From IMG/VR virus record IMGVR_UViG_2585427789_000019: a DNA stretch of 23,165 bases; one strand, 5' to 3'. Shown in pieces: positions 2,776 to 21,740 of this stretch. Numbering within the stretch: position 1 is the first letter of the stretch; each line of letters starts with the position of its first letter. This stretch comes from a virus. Taxonomy: Duplodnaviria > Heunggongvirae > Uroviricota > Caudoviricetes. Below the pieces are notes generated by a model, which was given only the letters and a program-made list of their open reading frames with translations, made no database searches and was not told where the DNA came from. A program made the position numbers and the translations under genes.

Positions 2776-2994
2776 TCACAATCCCCATTGTTTGTTCTTA
2801 AGTTCGATCTCCTCCTGGCAGCTTGCACAAGTCCGACAACCCTGAACGGCCAGGCGTCTTCGTTCATCTATGGGATCGCCACACTCACAACAATGAGTGG
2901 CAGATATAACCTGGTGGTTCAGACGACGCATTTTTATTGCTGTATTGCGCTGTAATTCTTCGATTTCTGATGCTGAATCAATGATGTCTGCCAT
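2776..2994 (-). CDS. TraR/DksA-family C4 zinc-finger protein (72 aa)
   Basis: MADIIDSASEIEELQRNTAIKMRRLNHQVISATHCCECGDPIDERRRLAVQGCRTCASCQEEIE... has paired CxxC motifs and an acidic N-terminal helix as in phage TraR-like proteins. Confidence 0.6.
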   Translation of the reverse strand: MADIIDSASEIEELQRNTAIKMRRLNHQVISATHCCECGDPIDERRRLAVQGCRTCASCQEEIELKNKQWGL

Positions 2995-3043
2995 CTTCCA
3001 TTAATCCCTGAATTGTTGGTTAATACGCTTGAGGGTGAATGCG

Positions 3044-4950: not shown

Positions 4951-6477
4951 ATGAAAAAAGCCATAGCATATATGCGATTTTCATCACCAGGTCAGATGTC
5001 TGGCGACTCATTAAACCGACAGAGAAGACTTATTGCTGAATGATTAAAGGTAAATAGTGATTATTATCTTGATACCATAACATATGAAGATTTAGGATTA
5101 AGTGCATTCAAAGGAAAGCATGCACAATCAGGAGCTTTTTCGGAATTTTTAGATGCTATAGAGCATGGTTATATATTGCCAGGAACTACATTGTTAGTTG
5201 AAAGTCTGGACAGACTTTCAAGAGAAAAAGTCGGTGAAGCGATTGAACGTCTGAAATTGATTTTGAATCACAGTATTGATGTTATAACTCTTTGCGACAA
5301 TACAGTCTATAATATTGACTCTTTGAATGAGCCATATTCATTAATAAAAGCCATACTTATAGCACAAAGGGCAAATGAAGAAAGCGAGATAAAGTCAAGT
5401 CGGGTTAAATTATCATGGAAGAAAAAACGGCAGGATGCACTGGAATCAGGTACGATTATGACGGCGTCTTGTCCGAGATGGCTCTCCTTAGATGACAAAA
5501 GAACGGCTTTTGTTCCAGACCCCGACAGGGTGAAAACTATTGAGCTAATTTTTAAACTCAGGATGGAAAGGCGCTCATTGAATGCAATAGCCAAGTATTT
5601 AAATGATCATGCTGTAAAGAATTTCTCAGGAAAAGAAAGTGCATGGGGACCTTCTGTAATTGAAAAATTATTAGCGAATAAAGCTCTGATAGGTATATGC
5701 GTACCTTCATATCGTGCAAGAGGGAAAGGGATAAGTGAAATCGCTGGCTATTATCCCAGAGTCATATCAGATGATTTGTTTTACGCTGTACAGGAAATTC
5801 GGTTGGCACCTTTTGGTATTAGCAATAGTAGCAAGAATCCTATGCTAATAAATCTACTTCGAACAGTTATGAAGTGTGAGGCTTGTGGTAATACCATGAT
5901 TGTTCATGCGGTATCTGGAAGTTTGCATGGCTATTATGTTTGTCCGATGAGAAGATTACATCGATGTGACAGGCCATCAATAAAAAGAGATTTGGTTGAT
6001 TATAATATCATTAATGAATTGCTTTTTAATTGTAGCAAAATTCAACCAGTTGAAAACAAGAAAGATGCTAATGAAACTTTAGAGTTAAAAATTATTGAGC
6101 TTCAGATGAAAATTAATAATTTAATCGTTGCATTGTCTGTCGCGCCTGAAGTTACCGCTATAGCAGAGAAAATAAGACTATTAGATAAGGAATTACGAAG
6201 GGCTTCGGTATCATTGAAAACTTTGAAGAGTAAAGGTGTAAATTCATTCAGTGATTTTTATGCTATTGACTTAACCAGTAAAAATGGACGAGAGTTATGC
6301 CGTACACTTGCCTATAAAACATTCGAAAAAATCATAATTAATACGGATAATAAAACCTGTGATATCTATTTTATGAATGGCATTGTTTTTAAACACTATC
6401 CTTTAATGAAAGTAATATCCGCCCAGCAGGCGATAAGTGCTCTCAAATATATGGTTGATGGTGAGATTTATTTCTAA
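4951..6477 (+). pseudogene. ybcK: Serine recombinase YbcK-like, interrupted by an in-frame TGA at codon 31 (5041..5043)
   Basis: ATG at 4951 with aggtg Shine-Dalgarno gives MKKAIAYMRFSSPGQMSGDSLNRQRRLIAE, then TGA, then the same frame continues LKVNSDYYLDTITYEDLGLSAFKGKHAQSGAFSEFLDAIEHGYILPGTTLLVESLDRLSREK... to 6477 (508 codons if read through). The N-terminal piece carries the resolvase-type catalytic serine motif (YMRFSS..Q). Confidence 0.75.
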
Positions 6478-7502: not shown

Positions 7503-8300
7503 ATGCTGGCAAGAGGTAAGACTAACTTAAAGATCGAAGAAATACGGATGCATAAACATCATGAGATTCATAGGGTTAAGCCTCTTATGCCAGCTTTGTG
7601 TCGTATCCGTCAGGGAAAGAAAGTTATCAATTGGGAGACGCATACTTTAACTGTTGATAATAATCAAATAATATTATTTCCTTGTGGTTATGAATTTTAT
7701 ATTGAGAATTATCCTGAAGCAGGGCTTTATCTTGCAGAAATGCTTTACTTACCCATTGATTTAATTGAGAGTTTCCAAAAACTTTATACGGTAACTGATC
7801 AAATACGTAACAAAACAAGTTTCTTTTTACCTCAGAATCCTGAGTTAATATATTGTTGGGAGCAACTAAAAACATCTGTTTCCCGAGGCTTCTCAACTAA
7901 AATTCAGGAGCACTTAGCAATGGGCGTTCTACTTTCGTTAGGAGTGAATCATGTTAATCATTTACTTTTATCATATAGTAAACAATCATTGATAAGTCGT
8001 TGTTATAACCTGCTGCTATCCGAACCCGGCACAAAATGGACAGCAAACAAGGTTGCTCGATATCTCTACATTTCTGTTTCTACATTACATCGCCGTCTAG
8101 CAAGCGAGGGGGTAAGTTTCCAAAGTATACTGGACGATGTGAGGTTAAATAATGCGTTGTCTGCTATACAAACGACGGTAAAACCTATAAGCGAGATTGC
8201 CAGAGAAAATGGTTATAAGTGTCCTTCTCGTTTTACTGAAAGATTTCATAATCGTTTTAATATAACACCAAGAGAGATAAGAAAAGCTTCCAGAGAGTAA
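7503..8300 (+). CDS. ybcM: AraC/XylS-family transcriptional regulator YbcM
   Basis: 265 aa with a C-terminal AraC-type HTH ([45 protein letters not shown]...[31 protein letters not shown]). Confidence 0.85.
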
Positions 8301-10577: not shown

Positions 10578-11660
10578 TTAGAACTGATACACCAGACCTA
10601 CAGCGACGATGTCGTCGGTATCAATACCAGCTGTTTTGGTAAACTTACTATCGTCAATTAAGTTGATTTTGTAATCAACAAAAGTGGACATGTTTTTATT
10701 AAAGTAGTAAGTAGCACCGACATCGACATACTTGACTAAGTCTCGGTCACCATGAACACCAAGGTCTTTACCTTTTGACTGAAGGTAAGCAACAGATGGT
10801 CGCAGACCGAAGTCAAACTGATATTGTGCTACTGCTTCAAAGTTTTGTGCTTTGTTTGCAATATGGTTATTACCAAAAACGGTCATATTCTGAGTTTCAG
10901 AATATGTGGTAGCCAGATAGATATTGTTCGCATCATATTTCAGGCCTGCAGCCCATACTTCCGCATTTTTGCCGGAGGCATTGAATTTGCTCTTACCATA
11001 GGCGACCTGACCGTCAGTGCGATCTGATTTAGCATAGGTTGCACCCACGCCGAATCCTTCATACTCATAAGTAGTGGAGAAACCGAAACCATCACCATTG
11101 GCTTCAGTTACGTCAGTGCGGTCATTTTTACCCTGATACTGAGCAGCAAAGTTCAGGCCATCGACCAGACCAAAGAAGTCGTTGTTACGATAGGTTGCAA
11201 CACCAGTGGTGCGACCAGTCATGAACACATCTGTTTGGGTCCAGGTATCGCCACCGAATTCTGGCAGAACGTCAGTCCACGCACCGATGTCGTATGCTAC
11301 ACCGTAGTTACGGCCGTAATCGATTGAGCCGTAGTCACCGAATTTCAGGCCTGCAAATGCAAGACGGGTTTTGTCTTTGGAGGAACCTTGAGATTCAGCG
11401 CGGTTGCCTTTGAATTCATATTCCCACTGACCGAAACCAGTCAGTTGATCGTTGATTTGGGTTTCACCTTTGAAGCCAAGACGGGCATAAGTAGTATCAC
11501 CATCATCTGCATCGTTAGAGGAAAAGTAGTGCTTGGCATTAACTTTCCCGTACAGATCCAGCTTGTTACTGTCTTTATTATAAATTTCAGCTGCCTGAGC
11601 AGACATCGCCATCAGTACTGATGCAGCTACAGCAGAAATTGCCACTGTTAATTTTTTCAT
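10578..11660 (-). CDS. nmpC: OmpC/OmpF-family outer-membrane porin (NmpC-type), apparently intact
   Basis: 360 aa with signal peptide ([23 protein letters not shown]), porin beta-strand pattern and C-terminal ...VGLVYQF; uninterrupted reading frame. Confidence 0.9.
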
Positions 11661-14464: not shown

Positions 14465-14690
14465 TTTGCGGGTCCTTTCCGGCGATCCGACAGGTTACGG
14501 GGCGGCGACCTCGCGGGTTTTCGCTATTTATGAAAATTTTCCGGTTTAAGGCATTTCCGTTCTTCTTCGTCGTAACTTAATGTTTTTATTTAAAATACCC
14601 CCTGAAAAGAAAGGAAACGACAGGTGCTGAAAACGAGCTTTTGGGCCTCTGTCGTTTCCTTTCTCTGTTTTTGGCCGTGGAATGAACAAT
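14465..14690. other. Lambda-type cohesive end site (cosQ-cosN-cosB)
   Basis: cgatccgacaggttacg followed by GGGCGGCGACCT (cosN, 14499..14510) and cgcgggttttcgctatttatgaaaattttccggtttaagg..., near-identical to the lambda right-end/left-end junction as I recall it, running into the Nu1 start. Confidence 0.75.
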
Positions 14691-15264
14691 GGAAGTCAAC
14701 AAAAAGCAGCTGGCTGACATTTTCGGTGCGAGTATCCGTACCATTCAGAACTGGCAGGAACAGGGAATGCCCGTTCTGCGAGGCGGTGGCAAGGGTAATG
14801 AGGTGCTTTATGACTCTGCCGCCGTTATAAGATGGTATGCCGAAAGGGATGCTGAAATTGAGAACGAAAAGCTGCGCCGGGAAGTTGAAGAACTGCGGCA
14901 GGCCAGCGAGACAGATCTCCAGCCAGGGACTATTGAGTACGAACGCCATCGACTTACGCGTGCGCAGGCCGACGCACAGGAGCTGAAAAATGCCAGAGAC
15001 TCCGCTGAAGTGGTGGAAACCGCATTCTGTACTTTCGTGCTGTCGCGGATCGCAGGTGAAATTGCCAGTATTCTCGACGGGATCCCCCTGTCGGTGCAGC
15101 GGCGTTTTCCGGAACTGGAAAACCGACATGTTGATTTCCTGAAACGGGATATCATCAAAGCCATGAACAAAGCAGCCGCGCTGGATGAACTGATACCCGA
15201 ACACGGCACTGGTCGGCGTGCAGGTGGACTCGGAGCAGTTCGGCAGCCAGCAGGTGAGCCGTAA
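14689..15264 (+). CDS. nohD: Terminase small subunit (Nu1 homologue) with a non-native C-terminal tail from a deletion junction
   Basis: [71 protein letters not shown]... matches lambda Nu1 through ...[14 protein letters not shown], then diverges ([21 protein letters not shown]) as the frame runs into J-derived DNA. Confidence 0.8.
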
Positions 15265-18040
15265 TTATCATCTTCGCGGGCGCATTCTGCAGGTGCCGTC
15301 GAACTATAACCCGCAGACGCGGCAATACAGCGGTATCTGGGACGGAACGTTTAAGCCGGCATACAGCAACAACCCGGCCTGGTGTCTGTGGGATATGCTG
15401 ACCCACCCGCGCTACGGCATGGGGAAACGTCTTGGTGCGGCGGATGTGGATAAATGGGCGCTGTATGTCATCGGCCAGTACTGCGACCAGTCAGTGCCGG
15501 ACGGTTTTGGCGGCACGGAGCCGCGCATCACCTGTAATGCCTACCTGACCACGCAGCGTAAGGCGTGGGATGTGCTCAGTGATTTCTGCTCGGCGATGCG
15601 CTGTATGCCGGTATGGAACGGGCAGACGCTGACGTTCGTGCAGGACCGACCATCAGATAAGGTGTGGACCTATAACCGCAGTAATGTGGTGATGCCGGAT
15701 GATGGCGCGCCGTTCCGCTACAGCTTCAGCGCCCTGAAGGACCGCCATAATGCCGTTGAGGTGAACTGGATTGACCCGAATAACGGCTGGGAGACGGCGA
15801 CAGAGCTTGTTGAAGATACGCAGGCCATTCTCCGTTACGGTCGTAACGTCACGAAGATGGATGCCTTTGGCTGTACCAGCCGGGGGCAGGCACACCGCGC
15901 CGGGCTGTGGCTGATTAAAACGGAGCTGCTGGAAACGCAGACCGTGGACTTCAGCGTGGGTGCCGAAGGGCTTCGCCATGTACCGGGCGATGTCATTGAA
16001 ATCTGCGATGATGACTATGCCGGTATCCGCACCGGCGGGCGCGTGCTGGCGGTAAACAGCCAGACCCGGACGCTGACGCTCGACCGTGAAATCACGCTGC
16101 CATCTTCCGGCACCACGCTGATAAGCCTGGTTGACGGGCAGGGGAGTCCGGTCAGCGTGGAGGTTCAGTCCGTCACCGACGGCGTGAAGGTGAAAGTGAG
16201 CCGTGTTCCTGACGGCGTTGCTGAATACAGCGTATGGGGGCTGAAGCTGCCGACGTTGCGCCAGCGCCTGTTCCGCTGCGTGAGTATCCGTGAGAACGAC
16301 GACGGCACGTATGCCATCACCGCCGTGCAGCATGTACCGGAAAAAGAGGCCATCGTGGATAACGGGGCGCACTTTGACGGCGACCAGAGCGGCACGGTAA
16401 ATGGTGTCACGCCGCCAGCGGTGCAGCACCTGACCGCAGAAGTCACCGCAGACAGCGGGGAATACCAGGTGCTGGCCCGCTGGGATACGCCGAAGGTGGT
16501 GAAGGGCGTGAGCTTCCTGCTTCGCCTGACCGTGGCAGCGGATGACGGCCGTGAGCGACTGGTCAGCACGGCCCGGACGACGGAAACCACTTACCGCTTC
16601 ACACAACTGGCTCTGGGGAACTACAGGCTGACAGTCCGGGCAGTAAATGCGTGGGGGCAGCAGGGCGAGCCGGCGTCGGTATCGTTCCGGATTGCCGCAC
16701 CGGCAGCGCCGTCGCAGATTGAGCTGACACCGGGGTATTTTCAGATAACCGCCACGCCGCATCTTGCGGTTTATGATCCGACGGTACAGTTTGAGTTCTG
16801 GTTCTCGGAAAAGCGGATTGCGGATATCAGGCAGGTTGAAACCACAGCACGCTATCTTGGCACGGCGCTGTACTGGATAGCCGCCAGTATCAATATCAAA
16901 CCGGGCCATGATTATTATTTTTACATCCGCAGTGTGAACACCGTTGGCAAATCGGCATTCGTGGAGGCTGTTGGCCAGCCGAGTGATGATGCATCCGGCT
17001 ATCTGAATTTTTTCAAAGGAGAGATAGGGAAAACCCATCTGGCTCAGGAGTTGTGGACGCAGATTGATAACGGTCAGCTTGCGCCTGACCTGGCGGAAAT
17101 CAGAACGTCCATCACGGATGTCAGTAATGAAATCACGCAGACCGTCAATAAGAAACTGGAAGACCAGAGTGCGGCAATCCAGCAGATACAGAAGGTTCAG
17201 GTTGATACAAATAATAACCTGAACAGCATGTGGGCTGTGAAGCTGCAGCAGATGCAGGACGGACGCCTTTATATCGCGGGTATTGGTGCCGGTATTGAGA
17301 ATACCCCTGACGGTATGCAGAGTCAGGTGCTGCTGGCGGCGGACAGGATTGCGATGATTAATCCTGCGAATGGCAACACAAAGCCGATGTTTGTTGGTCA
17401 GGGCGATCAGATATTCATGAACGAAGTGTTCCTGAAATATCTGACGGCTCCCACCATTACCAGCGGCGGTAATCCTCCGGCATTTTCCCTGACACCGGAC
17501 GGGCGGCTGACGGCGAAAAATGCCGATATTAGCGGTAACGTGAATGCGAACTCCGGGACGCTCAACAACGTCACGATTAACGAGAACTGCCGGGTTCTGG
17601 GAAAACTGTCCGCGAACCAGATTGAAGGCGATCTCGTTAAAACAGTGGGCAAAGCTTTCCCCCGGGACTCCCGTGCACCGGAGCGGTGGCCATCAGGGAC
17701 CATTACCGTCAGGGTTTATGACGATCAGCCGTTTGACCGGCAAATTGTTATTCCGGCGGTGGCATTCAGTGGCGCTAAACATGAGCAAGATCATACTGAT
17801 ATCTACTCCTCATGCCGTCTGATAGTACGAAAAAACGGTGCTGAAATTTATAACCGAACGGCTCTGGATAATACGCTGATATATACGGGTGTTATTGATA
17901 TGCCTGCAGGCAGTGGTGTAATGACACTGGAATTTTCTGTATCGGCATGGCTGGTAAATGGCTGGTATCCCACAGCAAGTATCAGCGATTTGCTGGTTGT
18001 GGTGATGAAGAAAGCCACTGCAGGCATCATGATTAGCTGA
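15218..18040 (+). CDS. J: Tail-tip host-specificity protein J, N-terminally truncated fragment (about 940 codons); probably a non-functional remnant
   Basis: ...[108 protein letters not shown]... matches internal lambda J sequence as I recall it; no native N-terminus or Shine-Dalgarno, and the frame opens at the nohD junction. Confidence 0.85.
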
Positions 18041-18059
18041 ATTTTATAACCCAGATACG

Positions 18060-18084
18060 GGCGCCAGAAATGGCGCCTTTTTTA
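18060..18084 (+). terminator. Intrinsic terminator after J
   Basis: Stem ggcgcca/tggcgcc with loop gaaa (18060..18077) followed by tttttt. Confidence 0.6.
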
Positions 18085-18098
18085 TTTGTGGAGTGAAT

Positions 18099-20444
18099 AT
18101 GGCAGTACAGATTTCAGGTGTGCTGAAAGATGGTGCGGGAAAACCAATACAGAACTGCACTATTCAACTGAAGGCAAAGCGTAACAGCACCACGGTACTG
18201 GTGAACACGGTGGCCTCTGAAAATCCGGATGAAGCCGGGCGTTACAGCATGGATGTTGAGCATGGCCAGTACAGCGTCACCCTGCTGGTTGAAGGTTTTC
18301 CGCCTTCACATGCCGGAACCATTACCGTCTATGAAGGTTCCAGACCAGGTACGCTGAATGATTTTCTCGGTGCCATGACGGAAGATGATGTCATGCCGGA
18401 GGCATTGCGTCGTTTTGAGGCAATGGTGGAAGAAGCGGCACGCAACGCCGAAGCCGCCTCTCAGAGCGCAGCGGCGGCAAAGAAATCCGAAACTGCAGCG
18501 GCATCATCGAAGAACGCGGCGAAAACCTCAGAAACGAATGCAGCTAACAGCGCACAGGCGGCAGCGTCCTCGCAGACTGCATCGGCAAACTCCGCGACAG
18601 CAGCCAAAAAATCAGAAACCAACGCGAAAAACAGCGAGACAGCCGCAAAGACGAGCGAAACCAACGCAAAGTCCAGCCAGACGGCAGCGAAAACCAGCGA
18701 AACGAATGCCAAAGCCAGTGAAACTGCGGCGAAAAATAGCCAGAATGCAGCAGCCGAAAGCGAGAGCGCGGCAGCCGGTTCTGCGACTGCAGCAGCTGGA
18801 TCAGCAACTGCTGCGGCTAACAGCCAGAAAGCAGCGAAGACGAGCGAAACTAACGCAAAGTCCAGCCAGACGGCAGCGAAGACCAGCGAAACAAATGCCA
18901 AAGCCAGCGAAACTGCGGCGAAAAGCAGTCAGGATGCAGCAGCCGAAAGCGAGAGTGCTGCAGCTGGTTCTGCAAGTGCGGCGGCTGCTTCTGCCACTGC
19001 ATCAGCAAACAGTCAAAAAGCTGCAAAAACCAGTGAAACCAATGCAAAGACAAGCGAGACTGCAGCGGCGAACTCGGCGCAAGCATCGGCAGCAAGCCAG
19101 ACAGCAGCTAAAGCAAGTGAGGATGCAGCCAGAGAGTATGCAAGCCAGGCAGCAGAGCCGTATAAATATGTCTTACAGCCACTGCCTGATGTGTGGATAC
19201 CGTTTAACGATTCACTGGATATGCTTGCTGGCTTTTCGCCTGGTTATAAGCAAATAACCGTAGGTGATGATGTTATTAAAATGCCATCCGATAAGGTTGT
19301 TAGCTTCAAACGCGCATCAGGTGCAACATACATTAATAAATCAGGTGTATTAACCGTTGCTGAAGTTGACGAACCGCGATTTGAACGAGAAGGTTTGCTG
19401 ATTGAAGGACAGAGAACAAACTATTTCAGAAATTCAAATACACCAGAAGCATGGAATAACACGGGTAGTGTGTCTGTTGAGTCGTTCGACAGTGATAAGG
19501 GGTTTAACTATGGAAGGATAACTGTTATTAATGAAAATCCGACAGCACAAGGATATCAGGCAATTGCTGTAAACACGAATGATGCTTACACCTGCCCGGC
19601 AGGTTCTTATACGACGATATCGTGTCTGACGAAAAGTGATAATTCCCGGTGTCGTGCAAGGTTCGGAAAAATGTCTGATAATGGTGCGTTTGTTTTTCAT
19701 TCAGATGCAGTTCTGGATCCTGTTACGGGAAATGTTGTTCATGGAAATAATGTGACGGTGACGGCAGAAAGAGTCGGTGAATGGTGGTTGTTTACCGCCA
19801 CTCTTTTTGCAGATGCGGAAATGATAATCAGCTCAAGATTTGAAATCCTGGCGATGCCTGGAATCAGTATTATCCCCAATGGCTCTACGTTAGATATTGC
19901 GATGCCTCAGGCGGAGATTGGGTCGTACAGGACGTCATTTATCATTACTGAAGGGGCTCCTGGCACTCGCTCCAGCGACATGGTGACAATACCTGTAAGA
20001 AACAATATTCACCGATTACCATTCAGTGCTCTTGTTGAAGTTAATAAAAACTGGGATATCCCTCCCAGCAAATCACCATTAATCTTTAATGTTAAAGATT
20101 ATCAGGAAAATGGTCTGTTCACGCATGGATTCCGTGGTAATAATTTCTCTGATGCCGGTTCTCCTTTTATTTCTATGGGAGGGTGTAATAAATATGTGGC
20201 AACAACCCAGAGGAAAATCATTTCAGGCTTCCGTTGTGGCGCTGATGGAGATGTTCAGGCCGTATGTAATGGTGAATTATCTGTTGCGGCAAAAACAACA
20301 TGGACTTCAATTGTTCCACGGGCAGTATTGCGAATTGGAGGGCAGGGCACTAATGGGGAGTATCATCTTTTTGGTCATATCCGTAATCTGCGTATCTGGC
20401 ATAAAGAATTAACTGATGCGCAAATGGGGGAGAGTATTAAATGA
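18099..20444 (+). CDS. stf: Side tail fibre protein (lambda Stf-like N-terminus, Ala/Ser-rich repeat shaft, non-lambda C-terminal domain)
   Basis: ATG at 18099 with ggag Shine-Dalgarno; MAVQISGVLKDGAGKPIQNCTIQLKAKRNSTTVLVNTVASENPDEAGRYSMDVEHGQYSVTLLVEGFPPSHAGTITVYEGSRPGTLNDFLGAMTEDD... matches the Stf N-terminus; followed by AAKTSETNAK-type repeats. Confidence 0.85.
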   Translation: MAVQISGVLKDGAGKPIQNCTIQLKAKRNSTTVLVNTVASENPDEAGRYSMDVEHGQYSVTLLVEGFPPSHAGTITVYEGSRPGTLNDFLGAMTEDDVMPEALRRFEAMVEEAARNAEAASQSAAAAKKSETAAASSKNAAKTSETNAANSAQAAASSQTASANSATAAKKSETNAKNSETAAKTSETNAKSSQTAAKTSETNAKASETAAKNSQNAAAESESAAAGSATAAAGSATAAANSQKAAKTSETNAKSSQTAAKTSETNAKASETAAKSSQDAAAESESAAAGSASAAAASATASANSQKAAKTSETNAKTSETAAANSAQASAASQTAAKASEDAAREYASQAAEPYKYVLQPLPDVWIPFNDSLDMLAGFSPGYKQITVGDDVIKMPSDKVVSFKRASGATYINKSGVLTVAEVDEPRFEREGLLIEGQRTNYFRNSNTPEAWNNTGSVSVESFDSDKGFNYGRITVINENPTAQGYQAIAVNTNDAYTCPAGSYTTISCLTKSDNSRCRARFGKMSDNGAFVFHSDAVLDPVTGNVVHGNNVTVTAERVGEWWLFTATLFADAEMIISSRFEILAMPGISIIPNGSTLDIAMPQAEIGSYRTSFIITEGAPGTRSSDMVTIPVRNNIHRLPFSALVEVNKNWDIPPSKSPLIFNVKDYQENGLFTHGFRGNNFSDAGSPFISMGGCNKYVATTQRKIISGFRCGADGDVQAVCNGELSVAAKTTWTSIVPRAVLRIGGQGTNGEYHLFGHIRNLRIWHKELTDAQMGESIK
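18648..19026 (+). repeat. Imperfect 189-bp tandem duplication (63 codons x 2) inside stf, itself built from 21-bp Ala/Ser/Thr-rich sub-repeats
   Basis: Units beginning aagacgagcgaaac at 18648 and 18837 are near-identical for the first 120 bp or so (KTSETNAKSSQTAAKTSETNAKASETAAK.S...AAAESESAAAGSA...). Confidence 0.8.
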
Positions 20445-20722
20445 AAGATTTAACACTCAAATTTGCAGACAGGGCCGACTTTTCGGCCTTTATGGAGAGT
20501 ATTGGCTATTATGATGACGAGTCGATGCAGGATGATATTCTTATTGACGTGATAGGTAACGTGTACAAAGAAACCGGAGAACTGACTGAAGATGGCGAAC
20601 CGGTATGTGTTAAGGAAGACGGATATTTTGTAAACGTGCGCATCATTAATGATGTAAAAAAATCGTCAATATTCGATAAATACGCGGTTGTTGTTGAGCA
20701 TCAACTTCGTGGCTGGATGTGA
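20441..20722 (+). CDS. Hypothetical acidic protein (93 aa), translationally coupled to stf
   Basis: ATG at 20441 overlaps the stf stop (ATGA); MKDLTLKFADRADFSAFMESIGYYDDESMQDDILIDVIGNVYKETGELTEDGEPVCVKEDGYFVNV...; no family recognised. Confidence 0.5.
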   Translation: MKDLTLKFADRADFSAFMESIGYYDDESMQDDILIDVIGNVYKETGELTEDGEPVCVKEDGYFVNVRIINDVKKSSIFDKYAVVVEHQLRGWM

Positions 20723-20731
20723 GGGAGACAA

Positions 20732-21436
20732 ATGGCTACATCGACAGTAATTCCAGGAGATATCACCACGCTAAAGGGAGATGTCAGTAAAACTAAGGAA
20801 GATATTTCCTCAATTAACGGAAAAGTATCAACGCTTCAGACTGATATGACCAGTGCAAAGCAGGATATCAGCACCAGATACACAAAAACTGAAGTTGATA
20901 ATAAGCTGAAAAACAAACTGGAAGTGAACGATCTGGAAAGCGGTCGTTATGGTGGAGATTTTTACCCGTTGACTGGCCGTGAAGCGTTTTATATGTGGGG
21001 ATTGGGCACGACTACAGCGGCGGCAAACCTTTATCTTAATCCTGACCCTGCAATTTCGTCTGTACTGCGGTCAACATCGTCTATTCGCTATAAACATTCA
21101 GTAGAGACGATAGATTCAGAGCACGCCGATCTCATTTTCAGGATGCGCCCTGTGTGGTACAGGTCGCAATGCGAAAATGACAGGCGTGACTGGGGATTCT
21201 ACGGATTGATTGCCGAGGAAGTAGGAGAAATTGCCCCTCAGTTTGTACACTGGCGACCAGCTAACGAAGATGATGCTCCTGAAGCTATTTCCAGCAATGG
21301 CCTTGTTGCCGAAGGTGTAATGTACGAACGTCTGGTTGTTCCACTGATTCACCATATCCAGAAGCTGACTGAAAGAGTTGATGAACTTGAGTCAGAATTA
21401 AAGTTGTTATCCGTTTCCCGAAGCGATATCGGATAA
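20732..21436 (+). CDS. Short tail-fibre-like protein with a C-terminal intramolecular-chaperone (peptidase S74-like) domain
   Basis: ATG at 20732 with gagggag Shine-Dalgarno; C-terminus ...SSIRYKHSVETIDSEHADLIFRMRPVWYRSQ...WGFYGLIAEEVGEIAPQFV...GVMYERLVVPLIHHIQKLTERVDELESELK resembles the autoproteolytic chaperone domain of endosialidase and L-shaped tail fibres; N-terminus looks like a coiled coil. Confidence 0.55.
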   Translation: MATSTVIPGDITTLKGDVSKTKEDISSINGKVSTLQTDMTSAKQDISTRYTKTEVDNKLKNKLEVNDLESGRYGGDFYPLTGREAFYMWGLGTTTAAANLYLNPDPAISSVLRSTSSIRYKHSVETIDSEHADLIFRMRPVWYRSQCENDRRDWGFYGLIAEEVGEIAPQFVHWRPANEDDAPEAISSNGLVAEGVMYERLVVPLIHHIQKLTERVDELESELKLLSVSRSDIG

Positions 21437-21446
21437 AGGAGGAGTA

Positions 21447-21740
21447 ATGGATATAACACCTTTCCTTCATGCGCTTTGTGCTGTGGCTGCGCAGCTACTG
21501 ATTGGTCTTTTTACCGGGAACTGGGCTTACGGGGCGATAGCCGGTTGTACGTTCTTCATTGCGCGTGAACACACCCAGGCAGAATATCGCTGGATCGAAA
21601 TGTTCGGGCATGGCAAGCGAATGAATATGCCGTGGTGGGGCGGTTTTGATACACGTGCATGGGATGTGGCAAGCCTGATGGATTTTGCTGTGCCGGTGGT
21701 GGCGTGTCTGCTGGTCTGGCTGTTGGTTAATCGTGGGTGA
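21447..21740 (+). CDS. Hypothetical small membrane protein (97 aa)
   Basis: Strong aaggagg Shine-Dalgarno before the ATG at 21447; two or three hydrophobic segments (LHALCAVAAQLLIGLF, AYGAIAGCTFFIA, FAVPVVACLLVWLLV). Confidence 0.5.
   Translation: MDITPFLHALCAVAAQLLIGLFTGNWAYGAIAGCTFFIAREHTQAEYRWIEMFGHGKRMNMPWWGGFDTRAWDVASLMDFAVPVVACLLVWLLVNRG

Follow-up and report, generated by a model that had tools for sequence, protein, structure and literature searches.

Gene Organization at the Junction

The window analyzed here is the whole stretch of 23,165 nucleotides (nt) of the IMG/VR virus record IMGVR_UViG_2585427789_000019 (Caudoviricetes), and the feature of interest is the junction at which nohD, the gene of the terminase small subunit Nu1 in a lambdoid prophage of the DLP12 type, runs directly into the tail gene J. 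A cos region, the truncated nohD, a large J remnant, a terminator-like hairpin and the side tail fiber gene stf follow one another around this point (Table 1). From base 1379 on, the window agrees to 99.95% with the DLP12-type prophage region in Escherichia coli strain C (NZ_CP029371), for which RefSeq gives the order intD, ybcK, ybcL-ybcN, ninE, rusA, quuD, an ompC-like porin gene, essD, rrrD, rzpD, iss/bor and ylcI, continuing with the terminase small subunit, the J pseudogene, the tail fiber gene, three small open reading frames (ORFs), appY and ompT. This is the gene order of a DLP12-type defective prophage, and the order in E. coli B REL606 is the same.

Table 1. Window coordinates of the features at and around the junction between nohD and J.
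Feature	Position	Strand	Remarks
cos region	14500..14688	+	cosN left cohesive-end GGGCGGCGACCT starts at 14500 (= lambda base 1), followed by cosB; 97.9% identity over lambda 1-699
Truncated nohD/Nu1 ORF, 191 codons	14689..15264	+	170 native codons, then 21 foreign ones from J DNA read out of frame; from the ORF list
Junction microhomology TACC	15194..15197	+	common to both parents, crossover inside; lambda 696-699 (Nu1) and 16138-16141 (J)
J remnant, 948 open codons	15194..18040	+	corresponds to lambda J codons 212-1132; translation equals lambda J from 212
Terminator-like hairpin GGGCGCCAGAAATGGCGCC and T run	18059..18088 (hairpin 18059-18078)	+	between J and stf; from the terminator scan
stf (side tail fiber) ORF, 781 codons from ATG	18099..20444	+	from the ORF list; 783 codons from GTG at 18093

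The Junction Mapped to the Base

The cos-Nu1 homology, equivalent to lambda 1-699, covers window positions 14500-15197 with 97.9% identity and stops at 15197, the last 108 bases before this point (...GAACTGATACC) being 100% identical to nohD of E. coli K-12. The homology to lambda J starts at window 15194 (lambda 16138) when followed leftward without a mismatch, and at 15191 when one mismatch is accepted, so that the J block extends over window 15191-17057 and lambda 16135-18002 with 94.2% identity. Both blocks have a BLAST E-value of 0 and are thus no chance similarities. The overlap of the two parents in TACC was established by comparing the junction, base by base, with nohD of K-12, Nu1 and J of lambda, and the PhiR46_1 phage J gene; with the flanks included, Nu1 and J agree at 9 of 12 positions.

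An earlier note on this DNA, made from the letters alone, had described two unrelated homology blocks, Nu1 and J, that meet in different reading frames, and the alignment to both genes that it proposed bears this out and resolves the breakpoint to the base: the Nu1 codons are counted from 15193 and the J codons from 15194. The close junction that it described is there as well, although the gap of about 15 bp is replaced by the 4-bp overlap. Its assignment of Nu1 homology through ...ALDELIP holds for the final proline as a residue, the third base of this codon being derived from J (CCC vs CCG). The break in J is not in the middle of the gene, as had been stated, but in its first fifth, at codon 212 of 1132 (19% into the gene), and the C-terminal 81% is kept.

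The parental blocks are collinear, share a few bases, are joined with no filler bases and have no long homology at the joint, as in a microhomology-mediated (illegitimate) deletion. No insertion sequence (IS) or IS footprint is found at the junction, which thus does not have the form of an IS-mediated or IS-excision-associated deletion. In lambda coordinates 15,442 bp are missing, namely the genes A, W, B, C, Nu3, D, E, FI, FII, Z, U, V, G, T, H, M, L, K and I and the J codons 1-211, in agreement with the prediction that the terminase large subunit, the portal, the head genes and most tail genes, over 15 kb in all, are absent.

The nohD ORF matches the Pfam family Phage_Nu1 (PF07471) with its residues 1-164 over positions 1-164 of 164 (E 2.9e-101), a full-length match that takes in the DNA-binding and self-association regions of the N-terminus, and is named terminase small subunit in RefSeq (WP_000453609.1). 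It ends, as predicted, in a 21-codon non-native tail, with the stop codon at 15262-15264. The native C-terminal tail of Nu1 (...IPGLLSEYIEQSG) and the overlapping large-subunit gene are both absent: the tail is replaced by the 21 foreign residues and no A gene follows. The nohD product is a truncated relic and no working subunit of a terminase.

The J remnant has in-frame GTG codons at 15218 and 15224 as possible starts. Its one open frame contains the Pfam domains Phage-tail_3, Ig_J, Ig_J_second, Phage_Tail_Tip and Ig_GpJ_C, so the C-terminal domains of J, including the receptor-binding domain, are present. The N-terminal part of J, together with its start codon, is absent, as are the tail genes that would be its partners (I, K, L, M, H etc.), and the Prokaryotic Genome Annotation Pipeline (PGAP) lists the remnant as a pseudogene without N-terminus. 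Compared with lambda J in blocks of 200 bases, the identity is 89-98% up to about window 17017 and 58-78% thereafter; compared with the J gene of PhiR46_1, it is 96.5% over the whole length.

Behind J, the terminator and intact stf that had been anticipated are found, the hairpin being followed by a T run and the stf ORF being uninterrupted. The terminator scan gives 1 site where 0.2 are expected in shuffles, and phage 21 has an annotated terminator at the equivalent position between J and stf. The stf product (RefSeq WP_000290529.1) matches Pfam phage_tail_N with residues 1-131 (E 5.8e-67), and the 5' end of the gene is 84% identical to lambda stf.

We explain these observations, with high confidence in the explanation as a whole, by a single loss joined at a microhomology, with its left end in a hot spot discussed below. 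From a DLP12-type lambdoid prophage lying between argU and appY, the genes for packaging, head and tail shaft would have been removed by one illegitimate recombination, which would have joined the 3' end of Nu1 to J codon 212 at the 4-bp TACC, presumably within one prophage and through microhomology-mediated joining or template switching. The products are a Nu1 in which 21 nonsense-derived residues stand in place of the last 11, and a promoterless, fully open J remnant followed by its terminator and the intact stf module; a terminase large subunit is no longer encoded.

Comparison with Other Prophages

The DLP12 prophage of K-12 belongs to the same family, has the same neighborhood (quuD, essD, rrrD to appY, ompT) and has likewise lost its morphogenetic genes. 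Unlike the window, it has an intact nohD (546 bp, 181 codons) and 309 bp (103 codons) of A joined to a tfa fragment, while J and stf are absent, and the breakpoints differ on both sides. Since each of the two prophages keeps DNA that is lost in the other, the deletions are independent and come from a fuller ancestor; as judged from the two sequences, neither arrangement can be derived from the other. The comparison with K-12 DLP12 suggested in the earlier note is thereby answered in favor of a different, independent deletion. The scar records the difference between the DLP12 relic of K-12 and the one shared by the B, C and ATCC 8739 lineages.

The nohA-stfQ region of the K-12 prophage Qin is similar in that Nu1 is fused near its 3' end to a tail fiber fragment, with the left break about 22 nt away from that of the window. 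It differs in that the break is at A codon 3 (lambda ~720) and the right partner is stf, not J. With this break position, the stfQ fragment starts at about the position of the A start codon, which is where the annotated stfQ begins.

The distribution of the junction was followed with a 281-base probe across it, at a coverage of at least 80%, in 5,426 complete E. coli genomes, 65 of which contain it. REL606, E. coli B, ATCC 11303, ATCC 8739, strain C and others match the probe with 100% identity. In BL21 derivatives 274 of the 281 probe bases match, the homology being lost 7 bases before the probe end, at about window 15363. The junction in the DLP12 prophage of REL606 (also of BL21, C and ATCC 8739) is base-identical to that of the window, and the same Nu1-fusion and Stf proteins (WP_000453609.1, WP_000290529.1) are encoded in REL606. 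The scar itself is thus already known and ordinary, being present in reference genomes as a pseudogene junction and, through its J relic, in the literature on lambda coevolution. By itself it is of low interest; the more interesting part is its left breakpoint, which is recurrent and polar.

Recurrence of the Left Breakpoint in Nu1

The left breakpoint (lambda ~697-703, ...CTGATA/CC/GGGG) recurs in dozens of distinct Nu1 fusions, the right ends of which are spread from A to tfa, always to the right and in direct orientation, with microhomologies of 2-4 nt. Two examples within 5 bases of the break in the window are a Qin-type prophage of strain 17MR471 (...CTGATA/TCTCCGG, joined at about J codon 61) and a DLP12 variant of strain VTB96935v (...CTGATACCGGA/GTCGG, joined to a tail fiber fragment).

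In a protein survey with the 191-residue fusion as query, 440 Nu1 homologues were obtained and the best 120 of the 440 were read. Among these 120, the native C-terminus is present in 47, and 50 distinct foreign tails are found. The last native residue is 169 in 24 of the tails, 170 in 7, 171 in 3 and 168 in 2 (36 at residues 168-171), and none of the 50 is fused at residues 166-167, 174-175 or 177-181. When compared with fusion points distributed uniformly over 165-181, the clustering has a binomial p = 2e-15. The tails derive from parts of A, B, C/Nu3, E, FI, Z/U, V, K, I, J, lom, stf and tfa, read either in frame or out of frame, together with one integrase fragment and one fragment of a major facilitator superfamily (MFS) transporter; the lambda positions of those that can be mapped range from 751 to 22390, and their orientation is direct in every case.

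The same picture is obtained at the nucleotide level. With a 20-nt anchor just left of the site, IMG/VR gives 119 usable loci, 111 with native continuation and 8 with junctions, 7 of which fall at CTGATA/ or CTGATACC/. With an anchor just right of the site, mirror-image junctions are found at 0 of 138 IMG/VR loci, which shows that the deletions always run rightward. A scan of the whole of IMG/VR for non-native bases after CTGATA or CTGATACC yields 11 and 7 real junction loci, respectively. Further junctions come from a metagenome scan; its 19-nt pattern matches mostly by chance in unrelated organisms, and hits were kept only with upstream Nu1 homology. With lambda as the undeleted partner, the microhomologies are TA, ATA, GATA, ACC or TACC.

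An unbiased estimate of the enrichment is provided by 80 loci anchored at the Nu1 start. These contain 17 breaks of collinearity over Nu1 and A together, of which 7 lie in lambda 214-690, 3 in 691-710, 1 at 720 and 6 in the rest of A, corresponding to densities per kb of 2.4 in lambda 691-710 vs 0.20 in the rest of Nu1 and 0.07 in A. The enrichment at lambda 691-710 is real, with only 3 events in this sample.

Evidence for independent events is given by three different Nu1-lom junctions found in three prophage families (a DLP12-type prophage, a Qin-type prophage and an element with a lambda-like integrase) and by a Qin contig from a gut metagenome. The latter is 98.4% identical to K-12 Qin over its whole length except for a single gap, a 22-bp deletion, GATA[CCGGGGTTGCTGAGTGAATATA]ACC, by which the left end is moved back to GATA/. 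The deletion also brings the stf fragment into the reading frame of Nu1 residues 1-169.

Some further regularities accompany these results. In lom, the right ends of four different Nu1-lom junctions are found no more than about 70 nt apart, and other groups of right endpoints are seen in B (lambda 2986-3028), C (5295-5336), I (14995-15019) and J (17157-17308). Nu1 breaks form a second, small cluster (lambda 425-427, three loci) inside a CCAGG (Dcm-type) site, the main cluster lying on CCGGG; other CCNGG sites in A have no breaks, and the CCAGG/CCGGG correspondence may be a coincidence. The sequences on either side of the site occur in 5,962 and 5,275 copies in complete E. coli genomes, a difference that probably stems mostly from the many sequenced laboratory K-12 and B strains and that was not used as an event count. 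In the literature searched, no relevant report of a deletion hot spot in Nu1 was found.

Because the left break of the window falls in this recurrent start point of rightward-only deletions, the event was probably favored by some local property of the Nu1 site. More generally, we propose, tentatively and with slightly less than even confidence, that the last dozen codons of lambda-type Nu1 (lambda ~697-703), close before the A start, are a sequence-specific, strictly rightward hot spot of microhomology deletion through which lambdoid prophages have lost their packaging and morphogenetic genes many times over, in independent events, the cause being a nick, a pause or a nuclease. It would affect DLP12-, Qin- and lambda-integrase-type elements in Escherichia, and divergent Nu1 alleles hint that other enterobacteria are concerned as well. 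If so, the junction in the window would be one product of a general route of prophage disarmament and not a random accident.

Several points weigh against this explanation of the junction and its left end. In the protein survey, fusion points ahead of about residue 165 are censored and long in-frame tails over-represented, and the 3 hot-spot events in the unbiased 80-locus sample make the fold-enrichment imprecise. Selection, and not mutation bias, could contribute to the clustering. Finally, an undeleted ancestor carrying both the Nu1-side and the J-side alleles was not found, so that the true size of the deletion and the choice between one and two adjacent prophages have to be deduced from lambda.

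Origin of the Clustering

A mutational origin, which refines the above explanation and of which the window junction would be one product, is possible, though we regard it with some reserve. A site-specific nick, break or pause of the nascent strand at ~697-703 (GATACCGGGG) would leave a 3' end that re-pairs with partially similar sequences downstream, giving rightward deletions of any length. The sharp peak at residues 169-170 and the strict polarity, with no member of the reverse class among the 138 loci, are as expected for such a process. Partners often resemble the deleted Nu1 flank past the crossover (e.g., J GGATAACGGGG vs Nu1 TGATACCGGGG), and the same start point serves deletions of 22 bp, of about 50 bp and of up to more than 20 kb. 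The Qin-type contig, which is K-12 Qin minus a further 22 bp, has its left end back at GATA/; the build-up at GATA/ would be explained if deletion of the motif to the right of GATA renders the site inactive. On the other hand, no candidate enzyme or barrier was found, there is no significant hairpin (z = 0.11), inspection reveals no convincing Ter-like, cosN-like or invertase-like site, CCGGGG is present 10 times in lambda 1-23000 (among others at 8204, 16824 and 19230, in the late region), and cosN is no deletion endpoint. Should the mutational origin be correct, a defined DNA site and process would steer the decay of lambdoid prophages into cryptic elements.

The clustering could also be selective, although we consider this unlikely. 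Hosts would gain from a Nu1 that binds cosB and self-associates but lacks the C-terminus that binds gpA, together with the loss of the start signals of A, the protein acting, for example, as a decoy against infecting lambda-like phages or the change disarming the terminase. Deletions with their start at precisely this point would then be the ones kept. All junctions indeed remove the last 8-13 residues of Nu1 and the ribosome-binding site and GTG of A (lambda 711), secondary trimming leads from residues 173 or 176 back to 169, and De Paepe et al. found that DLP12 nu1 works once it is transferred into lambda. However, selection would be expected to leave a broad range of fusion points, since any truncation behind the self-association domain would suffice, whereas the peak is 1-2 codons wide with 0 at residues 166-167. 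K-12 DLP12 has the full Nu1 and 103 codons of A, and no simple nonsense alleles at these codons are seen among the best 120 of the 440 proteins. We infer a mutational origin in preference to a selective one, because the peak is so narrow and because one and the same point serves 22-bp and 20-kb deletions.

Less likely again is that the junction arose by illegitimate recombination between two lambdoid prophages, for instance a tandem pair at argU. The left arm is nearest to K-12 DLP12 and lambda, while the distal part of J and stf are nearest to the phage 21/PhiR46 type and depart from lambda after window 17057. But lambdoid genomes are routinely mosaic, so that different nearest relatives need not mean two elements, and the genes are ordered and oriented exactly as in one lambda-like genome from which an inner part is missing. 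An assembly chimera, or one continuous conserved gene misread as two blocks, can practically be dismissed, with no support found for either: 65 independently finished genomes, REL606 and several BL21 assemblies among them, have an identical junction, and the two halves match different Pfam families (Phage_Nu1 vs the J domains) in different frames.

Candidate Causes of the Hot Spot

A number of specific causes were considered and rejected. Mis-cutting by terminase, or a deletion driven by cos, is not indicated, since cosN is not used as an endpoint: in IMG/VR there is no non-native continuation after ...GTTACG, and each of the 3 loci obtained after ...GACCT is a single-base variant. An insertion hot spot with IS-linked deletion was discarded because no IS is present at the site; the only documented nu1::ISEc8 allele (Sakai Sp4) has its insertion about 276 nt into the gene, away from the hot spot. 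For a hairpin or palindrome, the predicted fold is no better than that of shuffled sequences, and there is no notable inverted repeat at the site. Restriction at CCNGG, CCSGG or CCGG, with cuts at GATA/ or GATACC/, was rejected because such sites also occur at lambda 379, 425, 760 and beyond, the one at lambda 698 not being the first from cos. By eye and against consensus sequences, no convincing match was seen to a Hin/Gin/Pin-type quasi-site, Ter, Chi, the lambda att core, dif or a CRISPR protospacer-adjacent motif (PAM).

Two known systems offer analogies. At terB, arrested replication forks give rise to deletion hot spots, and in phage T4 recombination at short homologies takes place at the pac site in the 3' end of the small-terminase gene 16. 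Both share with the present hot spot one fixed endpoint, variable partners and short or imperfect homologies, and T4 pac in addition shares the location of the fixed site in the 3' end of a small-terminase gene. In contrast to them, no Ter-like sequence or terminase-binding site is known or was found at lambda ~700, and the two cases serve as analogies for a possible working of the hot spot, not as evidence of membership.

The integration of helper-embedded satellites into late genes was also rejected: the 14 sites listed in the paper on these satellites lie in A, B, C, E, V, T, H, L and J, and Nu1 is not among the genes hit.

The J Remnant as a Recombination Donor

The scar explains the presence, in the B, C and ATCC 8739 lineages, of a large open J fragment that can recombine with lambda and is therefore relevant to work on phage evolution in REL606 or BL21. 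Borin et al. (bioRxiv 10.1101/2020.11.02.365361) reported that positions 1545-2796 of lambda J recombined with positions 882-2217 of ECB_00512 of REL606, and that this recombination doubled the fitness of the phage on the hardest-to-infect host tested. When the J ORF of the window is counted from the GTG at 15218, positions 882 and 2217 align to lambda J 1539 and 2790, with a constant offset of 6 nt from the published lambda J positions that vanishes if ECB_00512 starts at the GTG at 15224. As the second GTG accounts for the offset, the J remnant is, by position, very likely ECB_00512, and as ECB_00512 is the published donor, the remnant has a documented role in recombination. It has no role in a virion and acts as a sequence reservoir for lambda J.

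Additional Features of the Window

The retained cos region, consisting of cosN and a lambda-like cosB, directly adjoins the truncated Nu1 gene, and the terminase of a helper lambdoid phage could in principle recognize it.

The first 1378 bases of the window are unlike strain C, with IS66-family transposition genes inserted in the integrase gene. The IS66-family ORFs, on the minus strand at 296-643 and 643-1293, cut short the DLP12 integrase ORF (1325-2251) at its C-terminus. Since the strain C reference has no such element in its integrase gene, the source strain is not the strain C reference itself. The prophage porin gene (nmpC/ompC-like, about window 10580-11660) is intact in the strain C annotation, is adjoined by IS5 in K-12 and is split by IS1 in REL606.

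The Ala/Ser/Thr-rich center of stf (18630-19067) contains two internal repeats of about 249 bp that are about 84% identical and give off-diagonal BLAST matches against strain C. On the 3' side of stf (20441-21740) there are ORFs of 93 codons, which matches no family, of 234 codons, which has a domain of the endosialidase-chaperone type (Peptidase_S74), and of 97 codons, which is hydrophobic; with these three ORFs in place of the usual single tfa gene, the tail fiber module is atypical.

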